A DNA stretch of 64,000 nt from Cyanophora paradoxa CCMP329 (GCA_004431415.1 QPMI01000089.1:124001-188000), one strand, 5' to 3'; numbered from the stretch's first letter, positions 1 to 25,016 are shown. The notes: generated by a model from the letters alone, not told the origin. Numbers and translations are program-made.

Positions 1-365
1 CCATTCACACTCAGTCCAGTCCCAATCCATGCCCCTCCACTGTAAACTTGAAAAGCCGCCGAATTCCTATCAGCCGGATTAAAAGCCGTTTTGGAATCCT
101 GTTGACCTTCATATAGATATTCTTTGGTGACCAGCCCCGAAGATATTGCGGGTCGATTAGATACGATCATTTGAGTAGCTTTAACGAGTCCATCAATCTT
201 GTCAGCTCTGAGTTCTTTGACTCTGAGTATGCTTTGGTCATTAAAAGAATCGGTTTTCGCTGTCTCAGTCGAAGGATGGCTCGGAGATAAATCATAGACT
301 GTGTGTTGGACATTATGGACAGCACTTGCACTCAAAGAAAACACAGGCGTGAATACAGTTGACAT
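1..365 (-). CDS. Viral hypothetical protein, 5' part only (runs off the window)
   Basis: Manual translation from ATG 365: MSTVFTPVFSLSASAVHNVQH...FQVYSGGAWIGTGLSVN, open to position 1. Not in the ORF track. Confidence 0.7.
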   Translation of the reverse strand, partial: MSTVFTPVFSLSASAVHNVQHTVYDLSPSHPSTETAKTDSFNDQSILRVKELRADKIDGLVKATQMIVSNRPAISSGLVTKEYLYEGQQDSKTAFNPADRNSAAFQVYSGGAWIGTGLSVN

Positions 366-386
366 CTTTTGATTGTTCTTTACTTA

Positions 387-1849
387 TTAAGCGAGAATAT
401 TATTGTTTTGGAGAGGTCCGACAGCAATCCAATGGAGTTTAAGGGTGCGATTGCTTTGGATCACACTGTTATAATTGATGTCCGAGTAACAAGTGAATAT
501 CGCAATCCAAGTGAATTTATTTTTGAACCCAATGCGATTTCCGAACTGATATTCAGCAGAGAGATATATGCTATTGGTGAAATCGACACTTGTTAAAATA
601 ATACTGTTTTCGAGAGTAGCAGTAATTACAGGATCACTAAAAAATGGGTTGAGAATGTAACGGTTCCCGATACTGTGGTAAAATCCCCTTTGTAATAGAC
701 TCCGGCAGGAATTACTACATCCATTGTCCCTTGTTGCACATATGCATTTGGATTCACATAACTACCGAAATTCGTGAGCAACTCGATGCTGTGATTGTGA
801 GTAGGTGGCGAAGTGGGTGTGTTAATTAAATCGTCATAGTTCCCGCTTGTAGCCACAGCATGCAAGTTTGGTGTATTAACTAAATCTGTATAGCTCCCAC
901 TTGTAGCCACAGCATGCAAGGTCGGTGCAATAGGGGTGTTAGTTAAATCGTTGTAATCACCACTTGTGGCAACAGCATGCAAATTCGGCTTAGTAAATAA
1001 CCTATCCCATGTCCCATTGAAAGGGAGTGTAGATTCTGATATAATTACACCTTGATCAATCCAACGAGGTATATAGCTTGTGAAATCGGGAGGATTTACA
1101 AGATCATAGTAATTTCCTGTGTATGCTACACTACTCCAAGTCGGCTTCTGAATGATATCACTCCACTTCCCACTAAATCCCGCCGGCACATCTGTAAGCT
1201 CTTTATAGCTCACCTTTTGCTTCGGTATAGACAGCTCAATGGGTGAGAATGCACCCGAAAGGCGATTTTCAGAGGTGAAATACATAAGACTTTGACTGTT
1301 AGGGAACTCATCCACGAGATTAAAGGTGAAATTCGTGGGCAATTCGAGTCGACTAATTGGGGTGTTGTCGCCCAATATAAATTCGGCACCTGTATGCACG
1401 ACCGGGTTTCTTTGGATATACATATTTGATGCACCTATTACAGGTGCTACTATGGGCACATCCGAATTAACGAGATTGCAAGTGATGGAGAAAATGGTTT
1501 TGGGGGCAAACAGATTGCAATCAAAGGTAATCGTGGCGGGATCAATAGTAGGATCGACATTTGAACAGATCTGAAACATCCACCCACCCACACAGTTGCA
1601 ATTTAAATTGCGAAAGGCTGTGCCTGCCATTGCATCCACATAGCCGATCCCATTTGCAATGTCATAGATGTGACCAAACTCGTAACCGAAAAGGTCATTC
1701 CATAGGTTAGAAGCCATAGCTCCCATCACATAGCCTTTCATATTAACGATCAGATCATTGGATTCACTGGGTAGATCTTTATGGGTGATGTAGAATTGAT
1801 TTTCCAATACAGCATTCTTTACTGTCGTTTCTACTATGGGTTCCGTCAT
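387..1849 (-). CDS. Tail-fibre/spike-like protein with LHAVATSGxYxDLxNxP repeats and a C-terminal H-lectin/gp53-like domain (one -1 frameshift near 638-648)
   Basis: ORF 626-1948, likely start MTEP at 1849, with three near-exact and two degenerate fibre-type repeats. The -1 frame continues PFFSDPVITATLE...LHWIAVG to TAA at 387-389, completing a GTVTF..PF...P......WIAxG domain. Confidence 0.7.
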
Positions 1850-1877
1850 TATTTCTCTATTAAGGCATTCTACAAAA

Positions 1878-4800
1878 TTAAGGTCGCATCGGGAGAAGCT
1901 CGTATGTTCTGCCCTCTCGCTGTGCCATTTCCGCCATAAAGTCTGCATTATCTTTTATTATTGATTCAGCCCTTCGTTCTGCTCGCGATTTTTTGGGTGC
2001 TGCCCTACTTGCTGGTGGTTGATCAGTTCTCACAACACTTAGACCATTCCCCTCGGCTGACCTCACCTCTAACCCCACATCTCCTTCGGCTGTTTGGGTC
2101 ACATTCATCTCTGGTGCCGAATATTTATTCCCTGCACCTGCAATGACCCGATCACAACATGCACAACATAAAGCCCGAAATTTGTATGCAAGTATACCCC
2201 CGAATAAAGTAATAACAGGCACAACCACAGCAATAACTATCAGTCCTGGATCGACACCACGACCCACGGGCTGGTTTGTAGGATTTGAGGATTATTAGGT
2301 GTCGTGTTTGGATCTGGATTAGTTGTAGGGGATTTTTCGAATCGGGATCTGGCTTAGGTGTGTTTGGATTGGGATCGTTTGGTGGCGGTTCTGTCGACCC
2401 TGCTAATGATGTCGGCGCTGTGTATGCATTCGCAAACACGATGGGAGCCGTTGCTGGATTTCCTGTTGAAGACCCTGTAATTGCACCATAGGTATCTGAC
2501 AGGTATTTATATAATTCCTTTGTCACAGGCGGATTGCTCACAGATCGGCACACCCAAATATTGCATGTAGTATCATAGACTGTGTCCCTGATAAAGGGCG
2601 GTAGAGCCGTCCCACTGAATGACTCAAAGAGCCCATTTCGCGATAGCAACCTATGGGCTGCATCACAGTTCCCACCCTCGAAATATTTGGTAGCCGAAAT
2701 TGCACCTTGCACATAAATATTACATGTCGAGTGCATTCCAATGTTATTTAGGTTGGGAGTGTATCTATCATCGAGCCGGACAGTGCACACCCATGGGGAA
2801 GCGGTTTTAATATATTTCTTATCGCCCACTTCGATGACATCTGTATTTGGGTGGCTGTCAAGCTGAGTCCAAACAGCATCATACCTGAAAGTGTAATAAA
2901 CTAAGAGCCCATCAGTAGAGGATGTGAAAGCAAAGAAGGTCATAAAGTCGGTGGATCCAAAGAAGTCAGCATTGGTCGATGTTAGGGTGACTCTGGATAG
3001 CTCATGTTGACAGTCTCAGAAGGATATGGAATATAGGAGGTGTAATTGCGATTGAAAAGATAATAGTGAAATCCATCTGAGACATTCGAGTGAGTGGGCA
3101 AGGTGACTGTTAAGGTCTTACTGCGATTCTCAAACGTGTTCTGTATGACAATGTTGCAAGTATTAATATATCGAGAATCGAAAAAGTAATTATTTGTGAC
3201 ACTGTTATTGATCAGAGTCGCATTGGTTCCATTAAATACGAAATTCTGCCCATTTATTCTCGTAGTATGGAGGTCGGTCACATCGAGAGGATACCTAATT
3301 TTCAAGCGATCTTCGGGGTCGAATCGTGGAATAGTTCCTGTTGCCTTCCAACTGATAGTAAAGGGAGGAGAAAGGGACACAGGTGGGATTGGAGTAAGAT
3401 TAAACTTCGCAAAATATAATCCAACAGGATATCCTGACAGAGCATAGGTCACTGTTGCATTTCCGACAAGTGTAAAGCCGGTTGTTGTTATATTTGTGGC
3501 GACAAATGGAGAGTAACCAAGGGGCGCATTGTTGAGAGAGGTAGATGATCCATTATTGATCACATACAAATTCGTATCTGTTATTTCAATAGTAGGAGGG
3601 GAAACAAAAGGTGTCTCAAATGTGAAATTAAAATTCGCTGGAACCCCTGCAAGGTATCTATATGTTGATGCTGATATCTCGGATGCCTGGAATACTTTGC
3701 TTCCCCTCTGCACTACATTACTTGTGTCTTTCACATTGTGGTAGGATATACTGGGAGTGGGGGAGAGCACCAACGAAATAGCATCTGGTAAATCAGACTT
3801 TGTTATATACAGTTCTCTGAGAAACTCCTTTCTAAAAGGGGCGGTCAGTTCTCCAATAGTAGCCGATGATCCTGCGACCACAATATTACAGGTGTTTGCA
3901 TTCAAAGAATAAACTGTGTTCCACCTTAAAGAGTTCGCCCCAAGATCCAAATTCTGTGAGAAGGGCACGATATTGCTACCCTGTAAATCGCGGTAAATCT
4001 TTACTCTGGGTTTGCTATCGAAGACAGGGGTGACATAATTGATAGTAAGAGTGAAGCTCACATTTGCTATGCTGTTTAGTGAAGAGTTTCGGATGGTAAT
4101 TAAATTACTAAGATTGATAAACGAAACCTGGAACCCTGTGGAGGTGATATTATGGACATATGCTTTATTAGATTCATTAGTGTAAGTAACATTGTTATAG
4201 TAAACTGTATGATCGACCAAGGTCACAGTAGGTAAAGCCTCGAAACCTGTGACACCCAATTGACCCCATGTAAATGTATAGGTCGGGCTATCAGCATACA
4301 CCACATAGACTTCGAGCCCTGCGATCTTTTGAGGGTAACCTGTGACCTCGTAGGTCTCAGTTCGCGAAACTGAGCGGGAAAGATTGCTGTTAAAGTCATT
4401 ATAGCTGATCAGAGCTCTCTCATCAGTGGGTAAATCACTGGGTCGGACTGACTGATTGAAAGGCAAGATTATGTTACTTGTTTTTGAGGTCGTGCTATAA
4501 AGGTAAGTCGTGTGCAAGTCATCAAACCACCCATCATAGGCATACACATTGAGCCATTTCTTAACAGCATCAGTGTTAGATTGCCCGAGATTAAATTGAT
4601 GATCGAGCAAAGGCACCAAATCGCGGGATAAATACATGATCGCATCAGTGATGGTGATTGCACCTGTTAAAACAGCGAGCCCTGCCGTGTTTGCTGCGGT
4701 AGCAATTGATAAACCCGAAATTTCGAGATCCTGGGCTACATCTCGCTCGTTTCTTGTGAATCGCTCACTATAAAACTCCTTTACAAGGTCGACCCCCATG

Positions 4801-5195
4801 ACATCAATTAAATGCGGTCGGGTCAGAGTGATATTGCTTGTGATTCTCTGCGAATATTTAACAGGATCCCATTCGACGACAGCTGTCAGTGGGATGGGGC
4901 GGGCTTTATTGATTTCGTGCTGAAAGGTTCTCACTGTGGGGAAATTGCTGCCAAAGAATGCAACAGGTGAGCCCCCATGATATATTACGAGGGCTGAGTT
5001 ATCAGTGCCATAGGTAAAAGGGAGATTGCTGGTGATATCAATATATTCAAGGTTACTCTGATTTAATAGAAAGTCTTTTACCACAAGGTTCGAAGATATG
5101 GTCACATTGGAAGCGGTAATGTTACTGCTGAGCTCGAAACCGTCATCCAAATACAAGGTTTCCCGAGTGATAAAGGGGAGATTCGTGATACTCAT
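1878..5195 (-). CDS. Large fibre/adhesin-like protein with Pro/Asn stalk and C-terminal transmembrane helix (ORFs 2982-5195, 2152-2943 and 1878-2267 joined across three -1 shifts)
   Basis: Contains fibre-type VP....LG...(K/R)W.xVY repeats and two H-lectin-like NITxTGF domains. The frames join by restoring one base at ~2995, ~2330 and ~2285, and the first and last ORFs share a frame. TM segment LIVIAVVVPVITLFGGILAY is followed by CCACC. Confidence 0.6.
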
Positions 5196-5213
5196 TTGTA
5201 ATATAAGATTATT

Positions 5214-6187
5214 TTAACCCGATAGCACCTCTAATATAAAGCTGTGATTAACGCCATTAAAGTTGACTACATTATTGTAGGCGTCGAGCCATTTAATGGT
5301 GAGGGTGTCTATGTCATAAGCCTGATCGTGGGAATTAAAGAACTCCACAGTATCGATTCTGCGGAATGTCAGGTAGTAAACAAACGATCCCAAGGGGCTG
5401 GTCAGTGGAATCTTAGCGAGGTTTGCATTTCCGCCCTCATCTGTCTTTGCTGCCACCATATACCTGTCGTAAAAGGGAGTAAACTCTTTAATTTGTAGGT
5501 AAACATAGGGGGTCGGATTTAAATTGATCGCATTCGGGAAGGTCACTGCATTGTATAGGAATTTCTCGGATATTGGTAAATTAGGCGGGAATATTGAGCG
5601 ACCCTCGAATGCTTGCAAGAATGAATACTGCAAGTGGAATGGGGTCACATCAGCATACGAGACCTGATAGTGAGGGCTTCCTTTTTCTGCGACTGCTGTT
5701 TGGTAAACCTGCCCTTTGACCATTCCATGGAATCGTGCAAAGTCGTCATAAGCACAGCTCAGTGTTAGAGGAATGCTTGAATAAAAGGTGAGTTTCATTG
5801 TCGCTGGATTATAGAGCCACTTGTAGTAAACTGTGACGCTTTCGCTTGTGAGAGGGTTTACATCGACAAAGCTGCCCGAATAGCCTAAGTTCTTATTACC
5901 ATATCCCCAAATCGCTGGGTGTAGTTCCCAATATCAGGGAAAGGGGAAAAGGTGATGGTGTTCGTCATTCCCTGTATGGTCACGCCTCTGGAATTATCGG
6001 TGACAGCATAAATCGTGTTCGGGAGCTCGGCACTCGCAATGCGCACCCCTTTTACGTTCAGAAGTCGCTGAGAAAGCTTTACTGTATATTCTCCCGGGTG
6101 CCCTGCACTGCGCTCAATAGAATCGATATTAACATTGACCCTCGTAAACTTGCCATTATAGAAATCGTTAACTGGCTTCCGAATCAT
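5214..6187 (-). CDS. Minor capsid (penton-like) protein 1, split by one frameshift near 5918
   Basis: N-terminal VNIDSIERS...YTVKL...NVKGVRIASAELPNTIY and C-terminal LAKIPL...IDTLTIKWLDAYNNVVNFNGVNHSFILEV, the pattern of PLV/NCLDV single jelly-roll minor capsid proteins. The -1 frame bridges the two ORFs without a stop. Confidence 0.8.
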
Positions 6188-6214
6188 TTTTATTTCCTAT
6201 TAATAAAGAATAAA

Positions 6215-7500
6215 ATGCGCGAGTATCTCAGCATCAGTAGCCGTGATCGATCAGAGGGCTCGGCTCATTCCTATAAGGTGACCCTTCCAAAGCAATACCA
6301 CAATGTGAAGAGCATCGCTGTGCGACAGATCGAATTTTCCAACACGATTCCGACGGTTCCAAGCCCTCAATTCTATACTGAGATCGGGGAGACGAAAGCC
6401 GAGGATGCTAATACGATTTTCATATCCTTTCCTTACCGATTTTCGAGCGGTCAGCTGAATGGTGCCACTCAGGAAATCAGAGATTCACAGGCAACTGCAA
6501 TATACGAAGCATACAAAGCGATAGATTTCGGCGACCAAGGCAACTATATACCGCCTGATTACCTAAACACTTTCAGAAGATATACCCGATACAGGGACGT
6601 AGCAATTACGATCCCTCCTGGCACATACTCGACTGGAACCGACCTTGCCACTGCAATCGATAACATCTTAACGAAAAATGGAACTGGCAACTACATCAAG
6701 GATATGATCGACACAAAAATTAATCCAAGCTACGCATCGACAGGGGAACCTTTTACCCGGTGGTGAGATGCCGTTTTGAGAGCACATTAAATGCCATATG
6801 CTTTTATTCGAGTGATTATGTCTACATAGCTTTCACTAAATATGGTCCGAGTAATGCCACTGGGTCTACTGCGAATGAAAGAAAGGTGCTCGCCTATCGC
6901 ACGATGACTCTTCTCGGGTTTACATCGATCAGAGAGAATATAATGATAGATCAATACAACGGATCGGGCTATACAGCCTTTGCTGGGAGTGGTGTCGTTT
7001 ACTCAGCTGGTGATGCATTCCGCAATTATAATTCGACGGCTCTGGTCTTAGGCATAGCCGGAGGCACTGCCCCTGATTATACACCGGATAATGCAATAGT
7101 TTTAAAGATCACAGAGCCGGACTGCTCGCTTTTTACGACATGCACCGAGGCTACTAATGGATTCCTCGCTAAGATCCCGATTTCGAAAGGCACAGCCTAT
7201 GCTGATGCTGAGCTAATTAATTATGGGGCGGATGCTTTCACGAAATACTTTAACACCCGCCTCTCCTTTGATAGTTTAACCGTTCAAATTCTCACGGAGA
7301 GCGGTTATAGGTATTTCCTCGGAAGCTGTGAGCACACATTCATTTTGGAAATTACTATGGGAGTGGATGAGCCCGACGACGATTTACAGCGCATTGTTAA
7401 TAAGGGATTCGCGAAAATGCTCTATGAGGACTACCCGCATTGCGGCAATTTAACGAATGCGTTGAGCGGGGTGGCTGTAAAAAATAATCCGTTCTTCTAA
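6215..7500 (+). CDS. Minor capsid (penton-like) protein 2, split by one frameshift near 6745
   Basis: MREYLSISSRDRS...YKVTLP..YHNVKSIAVRQIEFSNT, ITIPPGTYS, then LAKIPI...FDSLTVQI...EHTFILEI. Motif order is the same as in penton 1. Confidence 0.8.
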
Positions 7501-7533: not shown

Positions 7534-8982
7534 ATGGATCCCACGACCTCGCTTAGCCGCCTCACGCTCAAATCCGTCCTCGAAACCCCGGAGGATTACA
7601 AGAGCATGCTTTTGGATCGCGGATTTATCGTGGGTGTGGACAAACAATTCAAGCCTTCTCGTGTGGAGGTGCTCCCAATTGCGGATCCCGGCAATCTGTT
7701 CTCCTCTACTGGTGCTACCACTCGTGTGGTCTTCTATCTCCCTCGCTACAATTGGTGCAATGGTATTAGCCTCCAAGTTACCATCCCGTCGGCGAAGGCG
7801 CTAACTGCCATCGCCAAGACCTCTGCTGACTGCTCGGCTGATCTATTCAACACTGGATTCGTCCGCGGGCTTCCTGGCTCGTTTGTTCAGCGAGTCAGCA
7901 TTAAATACGGGTCGTATGAGCAAATTATTCCGGCTGAGCGCCTGGTAGATTACGCTTTCCTGGCTAACACTCCGGCTGAATTCGACCAAAAGAAGCGCAA
8001 GCATGGGCTGCATCTCGGACCGAAGGTAGAGGGCGGCAACCAAGCTGGCGGCATTTTTACCATGCGAATTCCGAGCTTCCTCGATGCTGGCGTGCCCATC
8101 GGTGCGCTCCCATCCGAAATCGCGGTCGAAGTATATTTCCAAACCCCTGCGCTGCTCGAAACTGCGGCGGTTCCTGGCGTTTACGCTCAGAATAACGCTG
8201 CTGCAATTACTGCGACCAATTCTACTGATGGCGAGACAACGCTTGCTCAAGCGGCTGCTTTCGGAAATATTAAGACCTTAGCTCACTCGGGTGCCACTGC
8301 GATTTTCGATAGTGCGGCTCTCACACCTACACCTGCACTTGCGAATCTGGAAATGACGACCCCTCGTATTGTTATGGACGCTGTTAACATCGATGAGGAA
8401 ACGATGGGCGAAATCATTACTCGTGTTAAGACCTCTGGCATCGCCATCCCCTACACTGATATTCAGTTTGCGGATTATACCGGTCTTGCTCTCGGCTCTG
8501 GTCTCCGCCTGTCACTATCTCAAATTTCTGGGCTTGTTTACGCACTTGTTGTCAAGGTTCGCGACGAAAACACACTCGGCGATAATAAAGGAGGGCACTC
8601 TACTGTCCGCACCCTTGCCTTCGATGATAATGTCGTGATGCAAGTTCTAAATAACAACAATTACCTATATTCCAACACTGGTGTCCCGCTGCAATCCGCG
8701 GCTATGGAGCTCGCCGATAAATTCAAGATGACTAACTGGATCGATAGCAACAAGCGCCCCATTTACACTGGCTTCTGCTTTGCTCTCGATGGTAAAGCGG
8801 CGCTCAAAGGTGAGAAGGCGACTGGCTACGTCGATCTAACGCAATCAGCGTCGAGCTTCCTGCTGCTCACACCAAATGGCACACCCCTCGCCACCTGGAC
8901 AAAGGTCGGTGTTCAGATCTCGGCTTACTGCCACAATATTCTTGTGATGAATGCCAATGGATTGTCAAAAATTTCAGCCTAG
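7534..8982 (+). CDS. Major capsid protein (double jelly-roll, PLV-type)
   Basis: 482 aa, beta-rich, located between penton and ATPase genes. C-terminal ISAYCHNILVMNANG resembles MCP termini, and codon bias is strong. Confidence 0.8.
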   Translation: MDPTTSLSRLTLKSVLETPEDYKSMLLDRGFIVGVDKQFKPSRVEVLPIADPGNLFSSTGATTRVVFYLPRYNWCNGISLQVTIPSAKALTAIAKTSADCSADLFNTGFVRGLPGSFVQRVSIKYGSYEQIIPAERLVDYAFLANTPAEFDQKKRKHGLHLGPKVEGGNQAGGIFTMRIPSFLDAGVPIGALPSEIAVEVYFQTPALLETAAVPGVYAQNNAAAITATNSTDGETTLAQAAAFGNIKTLAHSGATAIFDSAALTPTPALANLEMTTPRIVMDAVNIDEETMGEIITRVKTSGIAIPYTDIQFADYTGLALGSGLRLSLSQISGLVYALVVKVRDENTLGDNKGGHSTVRTLAFDDNVVMQVLNNNNYLYSNTGVPLQSAAMELADKFKMTNWIDSNKRPIYTGFCFALDGKAALKGEKATGYVDLTQSASSFLLLTPNGTPLATWTKVGVQISAYCHNILVMNANGLSKISA

Positions 8983-9109: not shown

Positions 9110-10057
9110 ATGGTTCCCGCACTCACACAGGAACAGTTTATTTCGCGCTCGAAAGAGAGATATCCTAATAAATTCGGATATGAGAGAGCAAGCTATAAAA
9201 CGTATTGTTTAGATAAAGTCACTCTTCTTTGCCTCACATGCAATGAAGAATTCAGTATCCTTCCGTCTAATCATCTTAAAAAGGGAGGCTTAGGCGGTTG
9301 TTTAAAGTGCCGAAATGACCTGCAACAGAAAGAACGAGCTGTTCCCCAACATATTTTCCTTGAAAAAGCTCGGTCAGTTCATGGAGACAAATATGAATAC
9401 GACCTTACAGGATACGTAAATTGTAGATCTAAAATATCTGTGACCTGCAAAGAGTGCAAGCAAATATTTGTAAAAGCGGCTTTCTGTATAACTAGGGGCG
9501 ATGGATGCACACATTGTAGTTTCAAAACCAAATGTGCAAAACTGACCAAGCCACAGGAGGTCTTCATAGCACAGGCGAAAGAGATACATGGGGACAAATA
9601 TGATTACTCACAGACCATCTACAAAAACAAACGGACAAACGTCGTAATTAAATGTAACAAGTGCTTGACAGAGTTTACGTGTGCACCAAGCAATCACCTG
9701 GGAGGGACAGGCTGCATCCGTTGTAGATTTTCCAAAGGTGAAGCTGCTGTCGAAAGTGCTCTAATGGATCTTGACATCCAATTCAAACGACAGCATCGAT
9801 TTTCTAATTGTAGGCATAAATACACTCTACCTTTTGACTTCTATATACCATCACTGAAAATTGCGATTGAATATGATGGTAGACAGCACTTTGCATCTGA
9901 TGAGTTCTTTGGAGGTGAGAAGGCATTTGAAGAGTGCAAGATTCGTGATGGTATTAAAAATCGCTACTGTGAAGCTAATGGTATCAAACTACTTCGTATT
10001 CCCTACACTGAAAAAGATATTAAAGGATGCATTGAGCGCTTCTTTGCAAGCCTTTGA
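9110..10057 (+). CDS. Zn-ribbon repeat + Vsr-like (PD-D/ExK) endonuclease, homing-endonuclease-like
   Basis: Three repeats of FI.KA..(V/I)HGDKY.Y...Y.N....CxxC...G.GCxxC followed by LPFDFYIP..KIAIEYDGRQHF...D..KN.YC..NGIKLLRIPY. Confidence 0.85.
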   Translation: MVPALTQEQFISRSKERYPNKFGYERASYKTYCLDKVTLLCLTCNEEFSILPSNHLKKGGLGGCLKCRNDLQQKERAVPQHIFLEKARSVHGDKYEYDLTGYVNCRSKISVTCKECKQIFVKAAFCITRGDGCTHCSFKTKCAKLTKPQEVFIAQAKEIHGDKYDYSQTIYKNKRTNVVIKCNKCLTEFTCAPSNHLGGTGCIRCRFSKGEAAVESALMDLDIQFKRQHRFSNCRHKYTLPFDFYIPSLKIAIEYDGRQHFASDEFFGGEKAFEECKIRDGIKNRYCEANGIKLLRIPYTEKDIKGCIERFFASL

Positions 10058-10117
10058 AGCGCCTGAGGAATGAGGGCTGTCGCGTTTCGTAATTTTTATA
10101 TGTTTCTTATAAGGGAA

Positions 10118-12440: not shown

Positions 12441-12455
12441 AAAATACGACTGATA

Positions 12456-12931: not shown

Positions 12932-15553
12932 ATGGACGCTATCACGAAATTCGCATTCTCTAGTGTCAAGGGCACCTTTCTGAAATGTCTGACTGGTTCT
13001 CGCAATACGTCTAATTTGGTTGAGTTAACCGATGATGAGATTATTGATCGCATCAATAGCTCAAAGAAACGAGACAATATGACCTATCCTACATGGGCGG
13101 AATGCATACAACCTGATCAAGTGACTCGTGTTTATCTGGATCTGGACAAGTTCGTTGATCTGAAACCTGATGTAGCCGACAACTACAAGGAAGCCGAAGA
13201 GATCATCAGGGAAATGCGCAAGAAATTGCAAACCCTGTCGGGATCTACAATTGCCGTCGCTGTTCGCCATCGCCGGGTTCATTTAATCAAAGAGAATGTC
13301 ACTAAGTTCAAGATTTCCGGGCATTTCGTATTTACCGATCTTGTCTGCCGCCACGAAGACATTCCAAAGCTTTTTAAAGCGATGGGTCTCATCAAAAATG
13401 TGGAATTCGATAGTGGTGTTTATGGAACTACTCAAAACCTGATCTGCCTCCGTTGCTGCAAAGGCGAAGCTTTGGACGCTCAAAGCAAATCAAAGCACGA
13501 TGTCGATAAGAATGTGGTGTTCACTAAGTTCATTGATTGCGAAAAAGAGGGCATGCACGATGGCTTTTTCCTGGTGCAATGTTTCGATCGCCCCACCAAG
13601 TGGGTGGAAGTAGACACCATGTCAGCCTTTGCGGTCGATAAACCAAAGGAAGCTACAAAGCCTGAGGAACCTAAGCAAACGGTGGCGCCCAAGTCTGTTA
13701 AGGACAAGCCCTGTAAAGAACCTGTGAAGAAGAAGGAGGAGATGTTGGAGGATCTCAAAGAAAATAAGGTTTCGTTTGAGCTGTTGCAAGAAGTCATTAT
13801 GAGCCTCAGTGGAGAGAGAGCCAATGAGTATAAGTCATGGATCGATGTAGGCATTGCCATAATCAATACCTGCGAAGATAACAACATTTCTCGCAAGCAA
13901 CAGGTAGAGCTTTTCCACAAATTCTCGGAGAAAAGCGAAAAATATGAATATGATGACTGTCATGAGAAGTTCATGAGCCTTTGCAAAGGCAAGAAAATGG
14001 TGGAAGGAAAGCGGGTTACATTCGGTTCGATTGTTTACTGGCTGAAAAAGGATAACAGCGACAGTTATAATAAGCTGTTTCCCAAGAAATATTCGTTTCA
14101 GCCTGAGGATTCCGACGATATTGACTACAAGACTGCCCCCATTCCACCTATGGTCGATAGCTTTGAAGTCCATCTGCGATATTTAAATGCGCGACTGCAC
14201 CACATCGAGAGTATTGGCACTGTCATGTATTGGGATGAACAGCTATTATCCTGGCGACCGAAAGATATTACGAAATTGGCGACCAAACATTTTCCCCATC
14301 TGTTTCACAAGGTGATTCTCAATGAGGGGACTGAGAACCAAACCGAAAAGTGGGTAAAAACGTTGTCTGAATGGATAACTGACCCAAGGGCGACACGATC
14401 CACTTACATGGATTTCCTGCCGCCTCCTGCAAAGCTGAGCGCGAAATGCAAGTCTGTGTTTAATCTCTACCCTGGATTCAAGATTGATCATGAAGAATTC
14501 GAGGAGCCGCCCCCCGAGGATGTGACAGAAGAGATGATTCAGCCTTTTCTGACACATCTATATTTAATGTCAGGCGAAGATGATAAGACATTCGATTATC
14601 TTAAAAAGTGGTTTGCCCACATGATGCAAAAGCCGGGGGAACTAAATAACGTGTCCCTCATCTTCCTAGGTCGCCAAGGCGCTGGAAAGAATATGCTCAT
14701 TGATACCTTTGAGAAGAAGATACTCGGTGATGCATTGGCATACTCGACAGCCAAACCAAAGGATGATCTATTCGGGCGATTTGCTCACAACCGGGAGGAT
14801 AAGATTATGATTGTGGTAAATGAAGCTTCTGGAAAGGATACCTTTGAACATAGCGACCTTCTCAAAGATATTGTCACAGCCCCGAAGATTGTAATCGAGC
14901 ACAAGGGAATCGATTCTTATGATAAGAAGAATTTCGCGCGGATCGTTTTCACAAGCAACAATACTGTCCCTGTGAAAATCGAGGCTGATGATCGTCGCTT
15001 TGTCGTTATTGAGGTGAGTGACAAACAGCGCTGTAATAAGGATTATTTCGCTCCGCTTGTTGAGTGGCTGAATGATATGAGAAATATTCGAAATATCGTT
15101 CAGTATCTCAGGACGAAAGTAAATTGCGAGAAAGTCAATTGGAGTCAAGACAGACCGCTTACAAACCGATACTACTTAGTTCAGCAAGCGGCTGCACCTA
15201 TTATCCTGATGTTTGCGAAGTGGCTTGTCGATAGTGAGCGGGTTACAGAGCTGAAAACGAAGCTGGGCGGTCTTGCATCGACATGGGAATTGTTCAAAGA
15301 CTTCATCTCTGAAAACAAATATAAAAACGATTATAATAGCAAGCGGTTCTATACTGAGATGCGCACGACTACATATATTCAAGTGAAAACGACCAATGGA
15401 AAATCTAACTATCATTTCCTGTGGAATGAGATGATGTCTGAATTCCGAAAGTTGAAGCTTATCGATGATGATTCGATTAAAGAAGATGATTCTCCTCAGC
15501 CGCAACCAAAGAAAAGGGGCACCAAATTCGAGGATTCAGATGTGGAAGCCTGA
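12932..15553 (+). CDS. AEP primase - PriCT-2 - SF3 (D5-like) helicase
   Basis: AEP motifs RVYLDLD, SGHFV and FDSGVY. PriCT-2 segment YKSWIDVGIAI...FHKFSEKSEKY. Walker A GRQGAGKN, VVNE, FTSNN and DDRRF. Confidence 0.92.
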   Translation: MDAITKFAFSSVKGTFLKCLTGSRNTSNLVELTDDEIIDRINSSKKRDNMTYPTWAECIQPDQVTRVYLDLDKFVDLKPDVADNYKEAEEIIREMRKKLQTLSGSTIAVAVRHRRVHLIKENVTKFKISGHFVFTDLVCRHEDIPKLFKAMGLIKNVEFDSGVYGTTQNLICLRCCKGEALDAQSKSKHDVDKNVVFTKFIDCEKEGMHDGFFLVQCFDRPTKWVEVDTMSAFAVDKPKEATKPEEPKQTVAPKSVKDKPCKEPVKKKEEMLEDLKENKVSFELLQEVIMSLSGERANEYKSWIDVGIAIINTCEDNNISRKQQVELFHKFSEKSEKYEYDDCHEKFMSLCKGKKMVEGKRVTFGSIVYWLKKDNSDSYNKLFPKKYSFQPEDSDDIDYKTAPIPPMVDSFEVHLRYLNARLHHIESIGTVMYWDEQLLSWRPKDITKLATKHFPHLFHKVILNEGTENQTEKWVKTLSEWITDPRATRSTYMDFLPPPAKLSAKCKSVFNLYPGFKIDHEEFEEPPPEDVTEEMIQPFLTHLYLMSGEDDKTFDYLKKWFAHMMQKPGELNNVSLIFLGRQGAGKNMLIDTFEKKILGDALAYSTAKPKDDLFGRFAHNREDKIMIVVNEASGKDTFEHSDLLKDIVTAPKIVIEHKGIDSYDKKNFARIVFTSNNTVPVKIEADDRRFVVIEVSDKQRCNKDYFAPLVEWLNDMRNIRNIVQYLRTKVNCEKVNWSQDRPLTNRYYLVQQAAAPIILMFAKWLVDSERVTELKTKLGGLASTWELFKDFISENKYKNDYNSKRFYTEMRTTTYIQVKTTNGKSNYHFLWNEMMSEFRKLKLIDDDSIKEDDSPQPQPKKRGTKFEDSDVEA

Positions 15554-15771
15554 CCCCACCCTACACCCCACCTGGTTTCATTCTAACATTGATATATCTT
15601 ATTTTTATAACTTAAAACACATTGAATTCAGTGTAAAGTATAGTTCTTAATACAGGGTGGGGAGGGTGGGGTTGGGTGGGGTCTTTTTTGCCCAAAATTT
15701 TTGGGTGGGAGAATTTTTTATTGGAACTCAAAAAATGCCCCACCTCACCCCACCCTCCCCACCCTATCGAA
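15554..15771. repeat. ~220-bp G/C-tract palindromic unit, copy 1
   Basis: CCCCACCCTACACCCCACC, an AT spacer with ACATTGAA, then AGGGTGGGGAGGGTGGGGTTGGGTGGGGTCTTTTTT pairing with AAAAAATGCCCCACCTCACCCCACCCTCCCCACCCT. Confidence 0.9.
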
Positions 15772-15810
15772 AAACAAAAAAGTCAGCTATTTACCACGTA
15801 TACAATCGGC

Positions 15811-17172: not shown

Positions 17173-20100
17173 ATGCCCCGCCAAACTAATCGCCTTATAA
17201 AAGAGAAAAAGGACGAAATATTAGGCTTGTTAGGTAGTCTTTTAGTCACTGGCGAGATCACCGAAGCCGAATATGATCGGAGGGCGGCGCTCTTAGATCG
17301 AAAACCCCGCTTAGCTAACCTTGTGAATATTGCCGACGAGCTCTATAATCGCCTGGAAAATGTGGAGCGCTTCTATACCGAAGGGCGGCGCTTAGCCGTC
17401 ATAGAACCTGATGAGGAAGACGGTTTCGCAATGAATAAAGCATACGCCTGGTATAGCTATAAGGCGGATGAACAGATAATCTTAGATCCGGTGGAATTTC
17501 TCACTACCATCGCTGCAAATCTGCCTGGGCGGCTGAAAGAGAGGCTGGACGAACTGAAAGCTATTAAGGTGCGCCTTACTTTCATCTGCCGATACGTTAA
17601 AGTGAGTGATCCTAACGTTTTTATCACCAAACACATTTACAGCGATTATTTCGTAATCACAAGGTCGCGCAATATTCTCACTGAGTTAGTGGGTGTAGCT
17701 CAGCAAATGAATGAACAGATGATACAGGTCGACAGCTACCGGCTCAGTAAATTAGATAAGCTACATGTCGCCGTTTTGTCATATGCGCCGGTGGGCGGCT
17801 GCTACATTGAGACCCCCGAATGGATTGGATTAAAGCGAGCCACAGTAAATATTAAGAATATCGATGGTCACGACTGTTTTAATTACGCTATCCTCGCATG
17901 GCTGCACAGAAACGACATAAACAGACACAAACGTAATGATCCGTTCCAATATAGGCGGTGGATGACTGAGCTGGACTTCTCAGGCATTAATTTCCCGGTG
18001 GCTTGCGATGCTGCATTAATAGATCGTTTCGAGGACAATAATCCCGAGCTGTCAATTAATATATATGGCGCCGACAATGCGACCCAAACCTTTTATCCAC
18101 TGCACATGTCAAGTAATCCGCGTCGTAAATCGAAGGTAAACCTGCTGCTGATCGAGGACGCAAACGGACAGGGTCACTATATTACGATTATGTCACTGAG
18201 CCGCCTATTAAAGACCACCTTTGATAAAGCAAACGACGGGCGCATTTTCTACTGCGAAACCTGTTTGTCCCGGTTTAGATCACAGGAGAAACTCGATAGC
18301 CACACCGACTCTAATCGCTGTATCGATTGGAGAATGAGTAAAGGTAAATGCCCCGAACCCGGAAGCTTTATTACTTTCGGACTGCAACACCTAAGGAAAA
18401 TGGTGTGGCTGCCCACTGTCTGCTACTGCAAGGTAGAGATGGAGTCGGTGCCGGTTCTTAATGAACCAAACCGAAGCAAGCGAGAGGTAAAGTCGGTGGC
18501 ACTTAATGTAGTTATGGGCTCGCATGTTGAAAATCACGAATTCGAGGGCGTGGATCCGCTGGGTCAGATGTTTACTACGTTAGGGGATCTGTGCCGCGAG
18601 ATGCTTAATACCCTATTTACCAACACGCCTATGATCCCGCTCACAGAGGCGCAAAAGCAAGCCTATAAGCTCACCAAGCACTGCTATATATGCAATCAGC
18701 GATTTACCCACGAAAACTTCCCTGTGCGCGATCACTGTCACCAAAGCGGCGATTATATAGGGAAAGCTTGCCGAAAATGCAATTTACACAGGAGGATCTC
18801 AAAGCAAACGAAAGTAGCCGTGGTCATTGATCGGATGGACGAGTGCGGGCATGCTATATTCAGGAAAATCGCACAGCAAGACGATAAGCTGCGGGTCGAG
18901 ATCCTAAGTAAGAATTTCGACGAGTATCTCTCTTTACAGTGGGGACTTTACAAGTTTATAGACGCCTCGAATTTCATGGATTTTCAGGCGTCCGATGTTA
19001 ATGATCTCATGGTAAAATTCGGTAAATTCAGTATGCTCGCACATGAGCAATACGGTCTGGATCCCACGCATTATGTGAGCGCACCGGGACTATCGTGGGA
19101 CGCGATGTTAAAGCATACGAGGGTCGCAATTGAACAGATCAGCGATGCGGATCAATACGAATTTATTGAGCGGGCAATTAGGGGCGGCTTTGCGACCATG
19201 CCCACACGATATGCCGAGGCTAATAGCGAGGATAAACATATAGTGCTATTGGATGCGAATAATCTATATGGCTATGCGCTCAGTCAGCCTTTACCGGTCG
19301 GGGACTATCGCTGGGACGACACAAGCACAGCTTTTACCGAGGTTGTAGGGCGGAGTGCATTTATAGAGGTCGACCTTGCATATCCGGACTATTTAAAGGG
19401 CGACCATCGCGATTTCCCGCTGATCGTGAGTAAAGAGGTAATTACTGTGGACATGCTCGGGAAATATCAGCGTGGGCTTTTGGAGATTAGCGGCGAGAAG
19501 CTCAGTAAAGATCCGAAGCTGATCGCCTCGTTTACTCCGAAATATAATTACGTGGTCTCTCAGCCGATGCTGCTCTATATGGTGCGGAAAGGCATCGTAG
19601 TTACTAAGATTCACCGCGTGCTCTCGTTTGCAACCGCCGCATTTATGAAGCCCTATATAGATCTGAACACGAAACTGCGAAAGGAAGCCCGGAATAAATT
19701 CGAGAGCGACTTTTTTAAATTGATGAACAATGCTATTTACGGTAAATGCCTGGAATCGTGTCGCGGGCGCTCAGTGGTAAAGATCGCGAACAGCACGAAG
19801 CTGTTTAAGAAATATGCGGCGAGCCCATTGGTAAAAGCGACGAATGTATTAAACGAGACTGCGGTCGCCTTTGAAATGTATAGTAAACACGTAAAACTCG
19901 ATAAACCGGTTGCGATTGGCGCTTATGTGCTGGATGCCGCGAAGCTACATAATTATAGCTTCTTTTACGACGTGATCCGACCCACCTGGTCGCAAGCTCA
20001 GCTGCTGTTCCACGATACCGACTCGTTCTGTCTGTATATAGAGAGCGCGGATCTGGAAGCGGGCATGCGAGCGATCAGCCCTTATTTAGATTGCCCTTAT

Positions 20101-20436
20101 AGTCCCGAGAACCGGATGGTTCCCGGTAAATATAAAAATGAGATGCCGGACGTCAAGATAGTGGAGTATGTGGGACTGCGACCGAAGCTATATGCTTTCC
20201 GCACCGAGAGCTACGACAAGGTAAAAATGAGCGGGACAGCCTCGAAAGAGGTGCATTTCGACGACTTTAAGCGCTGCCTATTTGACGGGATCACAAAAAC
20301 AGTAACAGTAGTAAACAAGCAACGGCGATGCCACCACTTATATGATTTGGAGAGCAAGCGGATAGCGCTGACCCAATTCGATGGCAAGCGCTGCATATCA
20401 GGCGACGGCATACATAGCCTTCCATTCGGCTGTTAG
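17173..20436 (+). CDS. polB: Family B DNA polymerase, Polinton/Maverick (protein-primed) type, with endonuclease VII-like Zn insert
   Basis: LLDANNLYGYA (motif A), FFKLMNNAIYGK (B), HDTDS (C) and YVGLRPKLYA. Also CYIC...VRDHCH..G.Y.GKAC..CN and YGLDP.HY.SAPGLSWDAMLK. Confidence 0.95.
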   Translation: MPRQTNRLIKEKKDEILGLLGSLLVTGEITEAEYDRRAALLDRKPRLANLVNIADELYNRLENVERFYTEGRRLAVIEPDEEDGFAMNKAYAWYSYKADEQIILDPVEFLTTIAANLPGRLKERLDELKAIKVRLTFICRYVKVSDPNVFITKHIYSDYFVITRSRNILTELVGVAQQMNEQMIQVDSYRLSKLDKLHVAVLSYAPVGGCYIETPEWIGLKRATVNIKNIDGHDCFNYAILAWLHRNDINRHKRNDPFQYRRWMTELDFSGINFPVACDAALIDRFEDNNPELSINIYGADNATQTFYPLHMSSNPRRKSKVNLLLIEDANGQGHYITIMSLSRLLKTTFDKANDGRIFYCETCLSRFRSQEKLDSHTDSNRCIDWRMSKGKCPEPGSFITFGLQHLRKMVWLPTVCYCKVEMESVPVLNEPNRSKREVKSVALNVVMGSHVENHEFEGVDPLGQMFTTLGDLCREMLNTLFTNTPMIPLTEAQKQAYKLTKHCYICNQRFTHENFPVRDHCHQSGDYIGKACRKCNLHRRISKQTKVAVVIDRMDECGHAIFRKIAQQDDKLRVEILSKNFDEYLSLQWGLYKFIDASNFMDFQASDVNDLMVKFGKFSMLAHEQYGLDPTHYVSAPGLSWDAMLKHTRVAIEQISDADQYEFIERAIRGGFATMPTRYAEANSEDKHIVLLDANNLYGYALSQPLPVGDYRWDDTSTAFTEVVGRSAFIEVDLAYPDYLKGDHRDFPLIVSKEVITVDMLGKYQRGLLEISGEKLSKDPKLIASFTPKYNYVVSQPMLLYMVRKGIVVTKIHRVLSFATAAFMKPYIDLNTKLRKEARNKFESDFFKLMNNAIYGKCLESCRGRSVVKIANSTKLFKKYAASPLVKATNVLNETAVAFEMYSKHVKLDKPVAIGAYVLDAAKLHNYSFFYDVIRPTWSQAQLLFHDTDSFCLYIESADLEAGMRAISPYLDCPYSPENRMVPGKYKNEMPDVKIVEYVGLRPKLYAFRTESYDKVKMSGTASKEVHFDDFKRCLFDGITKTVTVVNKQRRCHHLYDLESKRIALTQFDGKRCISGDGIHSLPFGC

Positions 20437-20597: not shown

Positions 20598-20842
20598 TTT
20601 ACTGTTTACTGCACGTTTTTATTGCGCGTTTTGCGGTGTTTATTGTCACGATTTTCATTAATTATTAAAATCTTGACAATAAACGCTCAGGTAAACTGAT
20701 TTTATTGACAGTAAACGTGAGAGTCTCACCACGATTGCTGTAAAAAATGAAAGCCCCGTGGGCAACGCAAAATGATTTAAGGAGAACGCGCTACATTTAG
20801 GCAACAGGAAAATATTTTCTCAGCTTAAAGTAAAAGGCGACA

Positions 20843-21442
20843 ATGGCGTATCTGTTCAATGGCGAGCCCATCTTTGAATATCCTCTTTCGGATCTCTCAT
20901 TTACCGCTGTCGAATTGCTTGACATCGTCTTCTCTATTGATAGCGACCGCTGTAAATTTTCTATTATCAATACATTCACCCGCCCGGAAGACATTGAATC
21001 TATTGGTTTCTTTATTGAAGAACCTCATAAAATTGTTGTTCGATCATCAAGAGGGTTCTCATACGTTACAGTCCATGATTTTTCCATAAAATATAGCATC
21101 GTTGGCGTCCATGAAGAAAATGAGGGAGGTTATCAATCTGTTCTGAATTTCCGGCGTCTCATCAAATGCACTCCATACACCATGAAGGATGTAATCAGAG
21201 CCGTTAAGCGTGAGCATGAACATGAACCAATAAACCTCCATTATTTCAATGTTAAACGCAATCTGTCCACATATCATAAGAAGTTTGAAGAGCATGAGTT
21301 GAAAATTACACGTCGCACCACCTTGCGTAAATTCTTAAAGGATAATGGAGCGAAATGGAGTCGTAATTGCCGAAAGTGGTTTATCGATTCAAACAACCGA
21401 AATGGTGTCGTCGCTAATATATTCTGCCCCGATTTACCGTAA
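20843..21442 (+). CDS. Viral hypothetical protein
   Basis: 199-aa ORF with the conserved promoter motif upstream. C-terminal LK.NGAKW....KWF. Confidence 0.75.
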   Translation: MAYLFNGEPIFEYPLSDLSFTAVELLDIVFSIDSDRCKFSIINTFTRPEDIESIGFFIEEPHKIVVRSSRGFSYVTVHDFSIKYSIVGVHEENEGGYQSVLNFRRLIKCTPYTMKDVIRAVKREHEHEPINLHYFNVKRNLSTYHKKFEEHELKITRRTTLRKFLKDNGAKWSRNCRKWFIDSNNRNGVVANIFCPDLP

Positions 21443-21514
21443 ACAAACAAAACCTTTTCTTGTCGCGTGCGAGTAAAATGTTACATTGATCTTTTTTATT
21501 GTCTGATGACAAGG

Positions 21515-22948
21515 ATGTCAAGACCGCCAATAGTAAGACGATCGCAAGATTTAGAGGGGAGCACATTGCCGATCCCCGTGCCGAAAGAGAATAAAGAGAG
21601 CCGCATAGTAAAGCGGTCTGATTTAAAGGCTTTGGTGCCCCGCGAGGTGCCCGTAGCCCTTGCTGTCCCGGAGGAATCGAAAATTGCCCGGAAGTTTTAC
21701 AGTCCGCAAACAGGCTTTAAAGGGATCACTAAGCTACGGCAAGAGCTGCCCGACGAGAATTATAAGAAATTGCAAGAGTGGTATAGCCGGCAAGAGGTCG
21801 TTCAGATTAATGCGCCGCACCTATCCCGCAAACGAGACCCTGCTATACCGATCCGACAGCCTCTCGATACCTACGTAATTGATCTGCTATTCTTTCCCGC
21901 TTACTCGAAGTATAATGATAATTACAGTGCTTTTCTCACGGCTATGGAGAACACATTACGGGTCGGGTTCATTATCCCGATGCGGGATAAGTCCGCGGCG
22001 TCGACCTTAGCCGCCTTTATACAGCTGCAAAATAAGGCGCCGAGACCAATTTTCAAAGTGCAAAGCGATGCGGGAAGCGAATTCCGCAATGATATTATGC
22101 GCAAATATTTCGAGAATCAGTTTATCGAGCATCAGATAGCGGACACAGCCGACCATCGCGCGCAAGGGCGCATAGAAGCATTTAACAAGCAAATGCGGCG
22201 GCTGATCACGAGCTACTGCATCGCGAATAATACGGCGCGATTTATAGATGTCCTTTCGTCTCTGGAATATAATTATAATAATACGGTGCACTCTGCGACC
22301 GGCTATATGCCCGCCGAGACCAACGAGAGTCACTATAAGCTTATAGTGCAAAAAGAAGATGCGAAATTCAAGAAATCGATAGCTTATTTGGATCAGATTC
22401 AGCCGGGCATGTCAGTAAGGCTACGGATCGAGAAGACGCCATTCGCTAAGGGCGGTAACAATTGGAGCCGAATCGTATATACTGTCGCCGCGCGCGAGGG
22501 CTATAAGTTTATGCTAACTGATCCGGACGGCAATCGCGTAGAGGGTCGCTTTGCCTTCCACGAGCTATTGCCTGTCCAAGCTGTGGATTACCTAATGGCG
22601 CCCACAGTAGATGCATTAGAAGCGGCAAAGGACGAGGCGCGGGTCGATGCGCAATTGCGTAGAGAGGGCATAGAAGCCGCCGCATCAGTGCCGCAAGGCA
22701 CTCTATTAGAGGATCGCGTGCAAAAAGAGAAACGCGTAAATAAAGAATTACAGCGGCTAGTAACCGCCGCGGAGCCTAAGCTATCCGGCGGCGTGAATAG
22801 CCAACGATGGTATAAGTCGTTCTCGAATCAGACTGAGAGCTATAAAGCGCCGGAAACCAAAGCTACATTAAGAAGTAGTAGAAAAGTAGCAACGGTAGCG
22901 CCGGTAGCTAATGGCGATCGAAAAGCGACTCTGAGACCACGAAAGTAG
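21515..22948 (+). CDS. Retroviral-type (rve, DDE) integrase of Polinton/Maverick class
   Basis: FYSP.TGFKG..KL, YVIDLL (D1), VQSDAGSEF (D2), GRIEAFNKQMR (E), YNNTVHSATGYMP and an SH3-like VRL......FAKG..NWS..VYTV segment. Start codon uncertain (21506 or 21515). Confidence 0.93.
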   Translation: MSRPPIVRRSQDLEGSTLPIPVPKENKESRIVKRSDLKALVPREVPVALAVPEESKIARKFYSPQTGFKGITKLRQELPDENYKKLQEWYSRQEVVQINAPHLSRKRDPAIPIRQPLDTYVIDLLFFPAYSKYNDNYSAFLTAMENTLRVGFIIPMRDKSAASTLAAFIQLQNKAPRPIFKVQSDAGSEFRNDIMRKYFENQFIEHQIADTADHRAQGRIEAFNKQMRRLITSYCIANNTARFIDVLSSLEYNYNNTVHSATGYMPAETNESHYKLIVQKEDAKFKKSIAYLDQIQPGMSVRLRIEKTPFAKGGNNWSRIVYTVAAREGYKFMLTDPDGNRVEGRFAFHELLPVQAVDYLMAPTVDALEAAKDEARVDAQLRREGIEAAASVPQGTLLEDRVQKEKRVNKELQRLVTAAEPKLSGGVNSQRWYKSFSNQTESYKAPETKATLRSSRKVATVAPVANGDRKATLRPRK

Positions 22949-23984: not shown

Positions 23985-24216
23985 CCCCCACCCTACACCC
24001 CACCCTATACTACAATCTCGTTATTTCTATACATATTTACTATCTATTTAATTAGAGTTTGTACATTGAAATAAGTGAGGTGTATCGATAAGTAATACAG
24101 GGTGGGGAGGGTGGGGTTGGGTGGGGTCTTTTTTGCCCAAAAATATTTGACCCCCCAAAAATTTAAGGGATTCAAAAAAAAGCCCCACCTCACCCCACTT
24201 ACCCCACCCTATCGAA
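23985..24216. repeat. ~220-bp G/C-tract palindromic unit, copy 2
   Basis: Same architecture as 15554-15771 (C-tract, ACATTGAA, TACAGGGTGGGG... arm, ...CCCTATCGAA). Confidence 0.9.
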
Positions 24217-24468
24217 GTACGCACGATATCATAGTAGGCTACATCGGGATTGCGATCATATGACAGTGTATACAGTGAGGGTGGTGCCCCACTTTCTCAC
24301 CCCACCCTATCGATTCGCGATTCAGGGATCGCGAAATATACAGCACATGATACTTGTTTTTCTTAGTGATCGCGCCGTTCTAATACGATCCGATTATATC
24401 ATATCTCGTCGGTATCACGTCGGTTCAATATCGTAATTATTAAATGGTTGGCTGATACCACCTTCACA

Positions 24469-24687
24469 CCCCACCCTCACACCCCACCCGGTATTAATTT
24501 AACATACATAATCTCTATACTTTATACATTAATCACATTGAAATCAATCATGAATATAATAAAAGATACAGGGTGGGGTAAGTGGGGTTGGGTGGGGTCT
24601 TTTTTGACCAAAACTTTTTGAGGGGGAATTATTTTAGGGAATTCAAAAAAATGCCCCACCTCACCCCACCCGCCCCACCCTATCGAA
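24469..24687. repeat. ~220-bp G/C-tract palindromic unit, copy 3
   Basis: Same architecture. The left arm carries the variant GGGGTAAGTGGGG. Confidence 0.9.
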
Positions 24688-24945
24688 GCTACATAGATGA
24701 TACACATGACTATATGTGGCGCGTCCCAAGCAGCACATTGTAATTATTTTAGATACACATCGCGCATCGTAAACACATATCGGCTATATCGCGACTACAT
24801 ATTTTTATATACATAATTTACAAAGATTTCACGATACATATATTATTTTTTATTGATTCGTTTACGAACTACCGATAAAATACATATCAGATATCGATAT
24901 ACACTATGATAAAAATGCTAATATCTTTATATAACTTATAGTAAC

Positions 24946-25016
24946 ACACATATAAAAACAAATATTATTATCCTGAGCGGAACGCGAGGGATAATAATAT
25001 TTGTTTTTATATGTGT
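24946..25016. repeat. Perfect 28-bp terminal inverted repeat/hairpin at the virus-host junction
   Basis: ACACATATAAAAACAAATATTATTATCC (24946-24973), a 15-nt loop, then the exact reverse complement (24989-25016). Confidence 0.95.

Follow-up and report, generated by a model that had tools for sequence, protein, structure and literature searches.

Within a 64,000-nucleotide stretch of the Cyanophora paradoxa CCMP329 genome (QPMI01000089.1:124001-188000; hereafter the window), bases 1 to ~25,016 form the right part of an integrated Polinton-like virus (PLV), whose left end lies beyond the window. The element encodes a protein-primed DNA polymerase of family B and of Polinton type (pPolB) in which the exonuclease motifs are gone and, beside it, a primase-helicase that combines an archaeo-eukaryotic primase (AEP) domain, PriCT2 and a superfamily 3 (SF3) helicase. 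Judging from the sequence comparisons, we give a probability of roughly 55% to the reading that the exonuclease-dead pPolB of this integrating virus relies on the SF3 helicase of the neighbouring primase-helicase, with the AEP domain as a helper. What is new here is the polymerase variant, together with a capsid family that has almost no known relatives; the dual replication genes alone are not new. An earlier note on this DNA had called the set of pPolB plus primase-helicase unusual, but such sets are already in print (10.64898/2026.10.13.758929, 10.64898/2026.07.28.741278, PMC13215967; all literature is cited from the parts of each text available to us).

The polymerase motifs of the window pPolB are intact and the catalytic pair C235/H335 of its vOTU protease is kept. 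The enzyme, which we take to be of Polinton group 2 type, was compared with the best 120 of its 609 matches, long Polinton-type enzymes, 119 of them at 32-39% and one, P0004, at 47%; it carries the endonuclease-VII-like zinc module of this pPolB type. The ExoI, ExoII and ExoIII patterns are present in 98, 110 and 74 of the best 120 matches, respectively, and none of the three is present in the window pPolB or in P0004. At the ExoI position 104 of the 120 listed matches carry Asp (15 have gaps and one, P0004, has Gln), while the window pPolB carries Lys. Across the ExoIII region, the window protein and P0004 both have a spacing of 32 residues, compared with a median of 126 and a next shortest value of 78 (69 of the 120 were measurable), and the deletion in the exonuclease region of the window pPolB amounts to ~94 residues. 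One other listed enzyme, P0117 (612 aa), matched no exonuclease pattern and is probably truncated.

A structure model of pPolB built from 90 sequences (pLDDT 88.9) contains a terminal-protein-like domain and a residual exonuclease-like fold. In the fold search it neighbours phi29 and enzymes of bidnavirus and adintovirus type, whereas mavirus came at rank 42 with 10% identity. Ser188, the candidate linking residue, sits in the loop before the last strand of the terminal-protein domain, which is where linking residues have been placed (PMC11161782). The Ser188 column is Gly in 84 of the 120 listed matches, and the Gly-Ser-Gly loop of the relatives is altered in the window pPolB. In a FastTree phylogeny of the polymerase part (121/121 sequences, midpoint-rooted, with mavirus and group 1 absent from the rows), the window pPolB and P0004 are sisters with a support of 1.0 and long branches, and the pair stands next to P0040 and the exonuclease-bearing P0005. 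Given that P0004 shares the loss as the tree sister, the exonuclease loss is inherited, and decay of this copy was ruled out as its cause. A loose end from the sequencing runs considered below, read by eye, suggests that a diverged pPolB is likewise without the ExoII motif. The loss is most likely separate from that of mavirus. No loci related to the window/P0004 pair were found in metagenomes; viral contigs gave only the fragmented copy L011, in which an ExoII-like stretch is retained, and pPolB had no match in the phage collection. Thus the Polinton-type PolB named in the earlier note is present, with terminal-protein domain, vOTU and palm kept, but its proofreading motifs are gone.

Residues 1-245 of the primase-helicase match AEP_C962R clusters, and phage primases match its PriCT2-SF3 part alone. 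The AEP motifs A (D70/D72), B (K127-S129-H131) and C (D160) fit the published consensus (PMC10778844), and the SF3 set is complete, with Walker A at 580-586, Walker B at 627-631, N676 and the arginine finger at 688-689. By offset from motif C, the positions of PrimPol Arg288 and Arg291 are occupied by Gln168 and Ile171, while the equivalents of Asn289 and Lys297 are kept; Arg291 has been called necessary in human PrimPol (PMC10778844). For C962R of African swine fever virus (ASFV), primer extension and unwinding have been demonstrated, with de novo priming merely presumed (PMC10516667). With both arginine equivalents replaced and de novo priming presumed even for C962R, the earlier suggestion of two priming options is not substantiated. 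Searches with the primase-helicase found no related loci, and the AEP domain had no sequence match in the PDB. The tail CTTAGAGTAAAA of the upstream motif described below is common to the pPolB and primase-helicase genes.

The non-coding DNA of the element contains three repeats, R1 to R3. R2 and R3 are direct copies of R1, ~220 bp long and 72-81% alike, and the three hold 22 of the 23 CCCCACC-type boxes of the element, placed in alternating orientation around an AT-rich stretch; R1 also carries a 37-bp inverted repeat. By analogy with the layout of origins used by SF3 helicases, this G-box arrangement suggests an origin for the SF3 helicase. R1, which lies between two convergent genes, could be a terminator instead; R2 and R3, unlike R1, stand ~1 kb past any gene. 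No copy of the repeat pattern was found in viral contigs. R1 was also considered as the terminal inverted repeat of a nested transpoviron, a candidate that was discarded because R1-R3 are direct copies. Short tandem arrays with 7-, 30-, 25- and 11-bp units occur at 23329-23600 and 23900-23951 in the non-coding end region and vary between copies.

Public sequencing runs gave a view of the element in other copies. Twenty of the 24 listed runs, all labelled organism A and drawn from 18 studies, contain 65-69% of the sampled words. Six runs were mapped as contigs, and depth, which is not copy number, was scaled to that of each run's own host-flank contig, using single chosen contigs. It was 23-25 for the gene of the major capsid protein (MCP), 14-21 for pPolB, 5-11 for the window's primase-helicase allele, 2-5 for the open reading frame (ORF) at 15811, 1-2 for the endonuclease and ~1 for the ORF at 20843. 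The element is likely present in ~20 copies with swappable accessory genes, and its low depth makes the endonuclease a probable newcomer to one or two of them. One contig with a depth of 13.5 departs from the window at 12455, and as 13.5 and 8.9 add up to the MCP figure of that run, the copies split into two kinds at this point. Read by eye, loose ends close to 14609 and 14647 resemble diverged SF3 peptides (5/10 and 7/10 residues as in the window), and those at 17184, 18818 and 19214 diverged pPolB, which suggests that the host has a second, related virus family. Because such SF3 loose ends occur, the low depth of the primase-helicase does not mean absence; the proposition that half of the copies are without it was dropped as a finding, the diverged SF3-like ends being under the mapping cut-off. 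Among the 80 best-supported between-copy substitutions (~750 further ones were counted), 64 lie within ORFs, 42 of them at third codon positions (p 1e-7), an excess that argues for purifying selection during copy divergence.

Exonuclease loss goes together with helicase gain in mavirus and in Tlr1-type elements, and the idea that ties the two, put forward in 2024, came from these two lineages (PMC11161782). The window element looks like a third, independent case. In line with this, 17 partial viral loci that carry this type of pPolB, mostly exonuclease-intact where the region is present, were without a detectable SF3 relative (0 of 17). In the replication cycle that we propose, the rve integrase would insert and disperse the element. 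After excision, pPolB would likely initiate at the ends of the genome, using either its own terminal-protein domain (Ser188) or the terminal hairpin, and the intact vOTU protease would release the terminal-protein domain. The SF3 helicase would probably load at the G-box repeats and unwind the template for pPolB, as in mavirus, while the AEP domain would likely help with re-priming or gap filling rather than serve as a second full replicase. The virion would be built and filled by capsid, pentons, fibres and ATPase. The idea can be tested here, since close pPolB relatives still proofread, about twenty sister copies can be compared and two proteins can be assayed.

Several observations weigh against this dependence of pPolB on the helicase. 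The control of 17 loci is small, partial and was searched with one sequence, and the helicase and the exonuclease loss have been seen together in one element. The primase-helicase allele (5-11) is less deep than pPolB (14-21) and MCP (23-25), contig depth being no copy count, and half of the copies may be without the primase-helicase, although the diverged SF3 loose ends show that other alleles exist. Moreover, protein priming may be impaired, given the changed Gly-Ser-Gly loop at Ser188.

The layout could also have arisen by replicase turnover, with the primase-helicase and R1 forming either a semi-autonomous cassette or a relic, the right end of a sister element, that recombined to the pPolB-integrase module, so that the two enzymes coexist and either can be lost. 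R1 begins exactly at the primase-helicase stop codon, R1 and R2/R3 bracket the pPolB-integrase block, and the module depths are unequal; multi-replicase genomes with internal repeats around one replicase, and one contig with an AEP-only module, have been described (10.64898/2026.10.13.758929), and pPolB with a D5 primase-helicase has been seen as a transient state (10.64898/2026.07.28.741278). However, the repeats are direct and not inverted, neither module is flanked by a second integrase or a target duplication, the genes have upstream motifs in common and their GC content at third codon positions is similar (0.51 vs 0.55). In addition, the primase-helicase allele stands at several-fold host depth in 4/4 runs of each mapping, and these runs also contain diverged homologues of SF3. 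We hold turnover to be possible, though clearly less probable than helicase dependence.

An obligate two-enzyme replisome, in which pPolB only elongates and either the AEP domain primes at the G-box repeats or the terminal hairpin self-primes, seems unlikely to us. It would account for the altered linking loop of pPolB, the kept AEP motifs A, B and C and Lys297 equivalent, the origin-like repeats and the terminal hairpin, a structure tied to non-pPolB replication in Halocafeteria elements (10.64898/2026.07.28.741278), but it fits poorly with the kept terminal-protein fold, loop serine and vOTU catalytic pair, with the replacement of two PrimPol nucleotide-binding arginines in the AEP domain and with a primase allele at about half the pPolB depth. 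It is similarly doubtful that the element represents a new lineage with a capsid leaning towards nucleocytoplasmic large DNA viruses (NCLDV), whose Polinton polymerase would have lost proofreading and protein priming and would elongate for a primase-helicase firing from internal G-box origins; if true, this lineage would offer a living model of how replication passes from protein priming, as in polintons, to dependence on a primase. Very improbable is an assembly chimera of different copies or a pair of nested unrelated elements. No short-read contig crosses the whole stretch, and between the window and the majority contigs there are single-base indels and a divergence of a few percent; yet 30/30 bins were covered in every run mapped, overlapping contigs lead from the primase 3' end into R1 and from the ORF at 15811 towards pPolB, 4/4 runs have a junction contig into the host, and the upstream motifs are common across the modules.

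The MCP had no match in a word-indexed protein search, viral contigs, metagenome contigs, PDB sequences or Pfam, and two relatives (40% and 38% identity) were found among 1.84 billion protein representatives; the nearest named one, P0002 (40%), is a Cyanophora paradoxa protein. Its language-model features fit NCLDV-type capsid clusters at 0.97-0.98, with a recognition value under the strong threshold. Although the model from three sequences is poor (pLDDT 41), the top named rows of the Foldseek and VIA searches are double jelly-roll capsids (Z 8.7, root-mean-square deviation 14.9, 252 aligned), a mixture of NCLDV, adintovirus and prokaryotic capsids. With this low-confidence model, an adintovirus capsid came at row 11 with mostly NCLDV capsids around it, the mavirus capsid at row 50 and the Sputnik capsid at Z 5.0, and the virophage family missing from the top rows does not count as exclusion. 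There was no sequence link (hhalign probability 0.2) with the capsid-like gene of L001, the one compared. L001:1-15372 is a viral contig that carries an exonuclease-intact pPolB and integrase, ATPase, capsid-like, penton-like, lipase-like and fibre-like genes. The fold class of the MCP, double jelly-roll, is secure, whereas a capsid group drawn from the fold searches was given up, the model being too poor; the MCP of the earlier note thus stands by structure prediction and fold search, with its group not assignable. The capsid family matters as a near-orphan in the databases searched that has a glaucophyte member, glaucophyte viruses being barely described in the literature available to us.

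The two penton-like genes resemble each other (N-termini 36%, E 6e-5; C-termini 28%, E 0.002), and their matches to the penton-like gene of L001 are non-significant (E 0.11 and 0.48), at the expected ends; on this weak evidence the divergent pair are likely pentons. The large fibre-like region is probably one gene of ~1,100 codons with an H_lectin match (E 1.3e-4) under the curated cut-off, and the neighbouring smaller gene is presumably a fibre as well, from its likeness to phage tail-fibre repeats. Six frameshifts (near 5916, 6742, 2994, 2327, 2288 and 1873) all lie in 2-4-base G or A runs, and since at each site the window and the short-read contigs are one base apart, they are assembly errors or lesions of this copy. 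Candidate genes for the two pentons and the fibres claimed earlier are therefore present, but both pentons and the larger fibre gene are frameshifted and the penton identity is weakly backed. The ATPase has one relative, P0001 (69%), with no PDB sequence match and no related loci from the ATPase alignment search. No capsid maturation cysteine protease was found among the scanned ORFs of the right part, the left part lying beyond the window, and no HUH or VLTF3 Pfam match among the element ORFs. These two genes, with an NCLDV-like capsid, are features of the NCLDV-like PLVs (Zora, Zephyr and Mriya groups, the marker Mriya48 included), and the MCP matches do lean towards capsids of NCLDV. The integrase has tblastn matches in 13 of 17 Polinton-type viral loci. 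A TTTCTC-type motif lies upstream of the MCP, the primase-helicase and three further genes; within the element it has four plus-strand occurrences, every one ahead of a gene, and one on the minus strand, against none in 39 kb of host DNA.

The element also stands out by composition, with ~44% GC versus 56-80% in the host (per kb, 38-51% up to 25,000 and 56-80% thereafter), and the low-GC block consists of tightly packed intron-less ORFs. Pfam matches were above the cut-offs for pPolB, the A32 ATPase, PriCT_2 and DUF5906 and below them for rve, H_lectin and DUF5901. The earlier assignment of pPolB, A32 ATPase, rve integrase and AEP-PriCT2-SF3 to this block was borne out by Pfam and motifs, and the ORF map confirmed open frames for all genes from the MCP (7534) through the integrase (22948). 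The terminal hairpin has a folding z of -9.4, equalled by 0 of 200 shuffles. At the end of the element, a junction contig at host depth was found in 4/4 runs, in each beginning 24-28 bases inside the element and entering host DNA with 0 mismatches, an overlap that falls short of the 31 bases of the bridging rule. Depth, junction, copy variation and substitutions together support the view of an integrated Polinton-like virus, here multi-copy, mosaic and under recent selection. The adjoining host gene is presumably sacsin-like, from motifs judged by eye, and as the element end abuts its coding sequence, the insertion probably interrupts it. The genes of the host flank are rich in introns and GC and include TMEM18 and GOST matches (Pfam), which suggests a single-celled eukaryote as host, as opposed to an animal or a land plant. 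Just past the sacsin-like gene, ~12 copies of a 30-bp unit form a tandem array at 33747-34137 that also has higher-order units of 68 and 98 bp; an intron-split gene on the minus strand (35344-41700) is by eye hybrid histidine kinase-like with a receiver domain, and a 10-bp array of ~16 copies lies at 55359-55760 within a host gene region. All features are listed in Table 1.

Table 1 Features of the integrated element and the adjoining host gene (window coordinates)
Feature	Position	Strand	Remarks
Edge-cut ORF	3..365	-	No family found; variant of the element's upstream motif ahead of it
Fibre-like gene	626..1948	-	18-residue repeats; start probably near 1849; PHROG 17509 (function unknown) E 2e-17
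Large fibre-like gene	1881..5195	-	Broken near 2994, 2327, 2288; two weak H-type lectin stretches
Penton-like gene 1	5214..6187	-	Two pieces, break near 5916; DUF5901 E 0.0058
Penton-like gene 2	6215..7500	+	Two pieces, break near 6742; divergently oriented to penton-like gene 1
Major capsid protein (MCP)	7534..8982	+	482 aa; double jelly-roll; near-orphan family
HNH/homing-type endonuclease, accessory	9110..10057	+	Between MCP and ATPase; PHROG 559 E 5e-68
A32-like packaging ATPase	10070..11029	+	Pox_A32 E 5e-10; Walker A and B
Unknown ORF	11053-11724	+	Core depth
Unknown ORF	11925-12272	+	
Unknown ORF	12491-12721	+	AT-hook-like end
AEP-PriCT2-SF3 primase-helicase	12932..15553	+	873 aa; PriCT_2 E 1e-12; SF3/DUF5906 E 4e-19
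Repeat R1	15551..15775		Starts at primase-helicase stop codon; z -4.4
Accessory ORF	15811-16665	-	~2-5x host depth
Accessory ORF	16812-17129	+	
pPolB, taken to be of Polinton group 2 type	17173..20436	+	1087 aa; DNA_pol_B_2 E 2e-11
Accessory ORF	20843..21442	+	~host depth; other copies differ here
Retroviral-type (rve) DDE integrase	21506..22948	+	D126, D188, E224; Pfam E 0.014
Repeat R2	23983-24216		In 2-kb non-coding end region
Repeat R3	24468-24690		In 2-kb non-coding end region
Terminal hairpin	24946..25016		Perfect 28-bp arms; marks element end at ~25,016
Host sacsin-like gene (presumed)	25017..33000 (extent approximate)	+	With introns; adjoins element end directly; SACS E 0.077, off-frame

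Compared with known systems, the element is close to C. paradoxa PLVs in that its nearest named MCP relative is a protein of this alga. PMC12220804 names in passing 11 PLVs of glaucophytes and an H-lectin domain in a fibre of C. paradoxa, but its available text does not describe the capsid group, gene order or replication module of the catalogued C. paradoxa PLVs. One multi-replicase example in 10.64898/2026.10.13.758929 has the contig prefix given for C. paradoxa (PMC8502044), and the family may already be contained, unnamed, in published supplements or datasets. With the ASFV C962R and poxvirus D5-type proteins, the primase-helicase shares the domain order and the catalytic motifs, but it belongs to a small integrating virus and stands beside pPolB, and two PrimPol-site arginines are replaced.

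Mavirus and the pMVRE elements of group 1 likewise combine an exonuclease-deficient pPolB, a separate SF3 helicase (DUF5906) and an rve integrase, and DUF5906 is the commonest partner of mavirus-like pPolB (PMC13215967). Unlike mavirus, the window element has a pPolB that is not of mavirus type: its best sequence matches are long exonuclease-bearing pPolBs, and its exonuclease-like fold is predicted to stay with its catalytic residues gone; its helicase has an AEP domain, and its capsid, in a low-confidence model, did not rank with virophage capsids. In the texts of the literature consulted, as distinct from figures and supplements, exonuclease-less polinton polymerases are described for mavirus and Tlr1, with no group 2 case.

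Multi-replicase polisuviruses (10.64898/2026.10.13.758929) and the Halocafeteria seosinensis virophages (10.64898/2026.07.28.741278) resemble the window element in having pPolB, a DDE integrase and an AEP or D5 primase-helicase in one element, as well as replicase-bracketing internal repeats, nearby endonucleases and terminal palindromes; the Halocafeteria elements specifically combine pPolB and a D5 primase-helicase with terminal palindromes (10.64898/2026.07.28.741278). The window element differs from both in carrying the dual state at multi-copy depth, and the text of 10.64898/2026.10.13.758929, in which the word "exonuclease" occurs 0 times, does not mention exonuclease loss; the "two minor capsid" of that text are two groups, not two genes per genome. 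Finally, group 2 Maverick-Polintons and beta-adintoviruses (Polintoviricetes) share with the window element the pPolB type, rve integrase and ATPase, along with an MCP and candidate pentons, with the closest ATPase among the loci being that of L001 (28%). They differ in that the window pPolB is without exonuclease motifs, no protease occurs in the part seen and the MCP has no link to the L001 capsid-like gene. Replication modules swap in all groups, with no glaucophyte group named in the available text, and group 2 members are described as having one of pPolB and AEP-SF3 in place of the other (10.64898/2026.06.19.733378), whereas the window element keeps both side by side.

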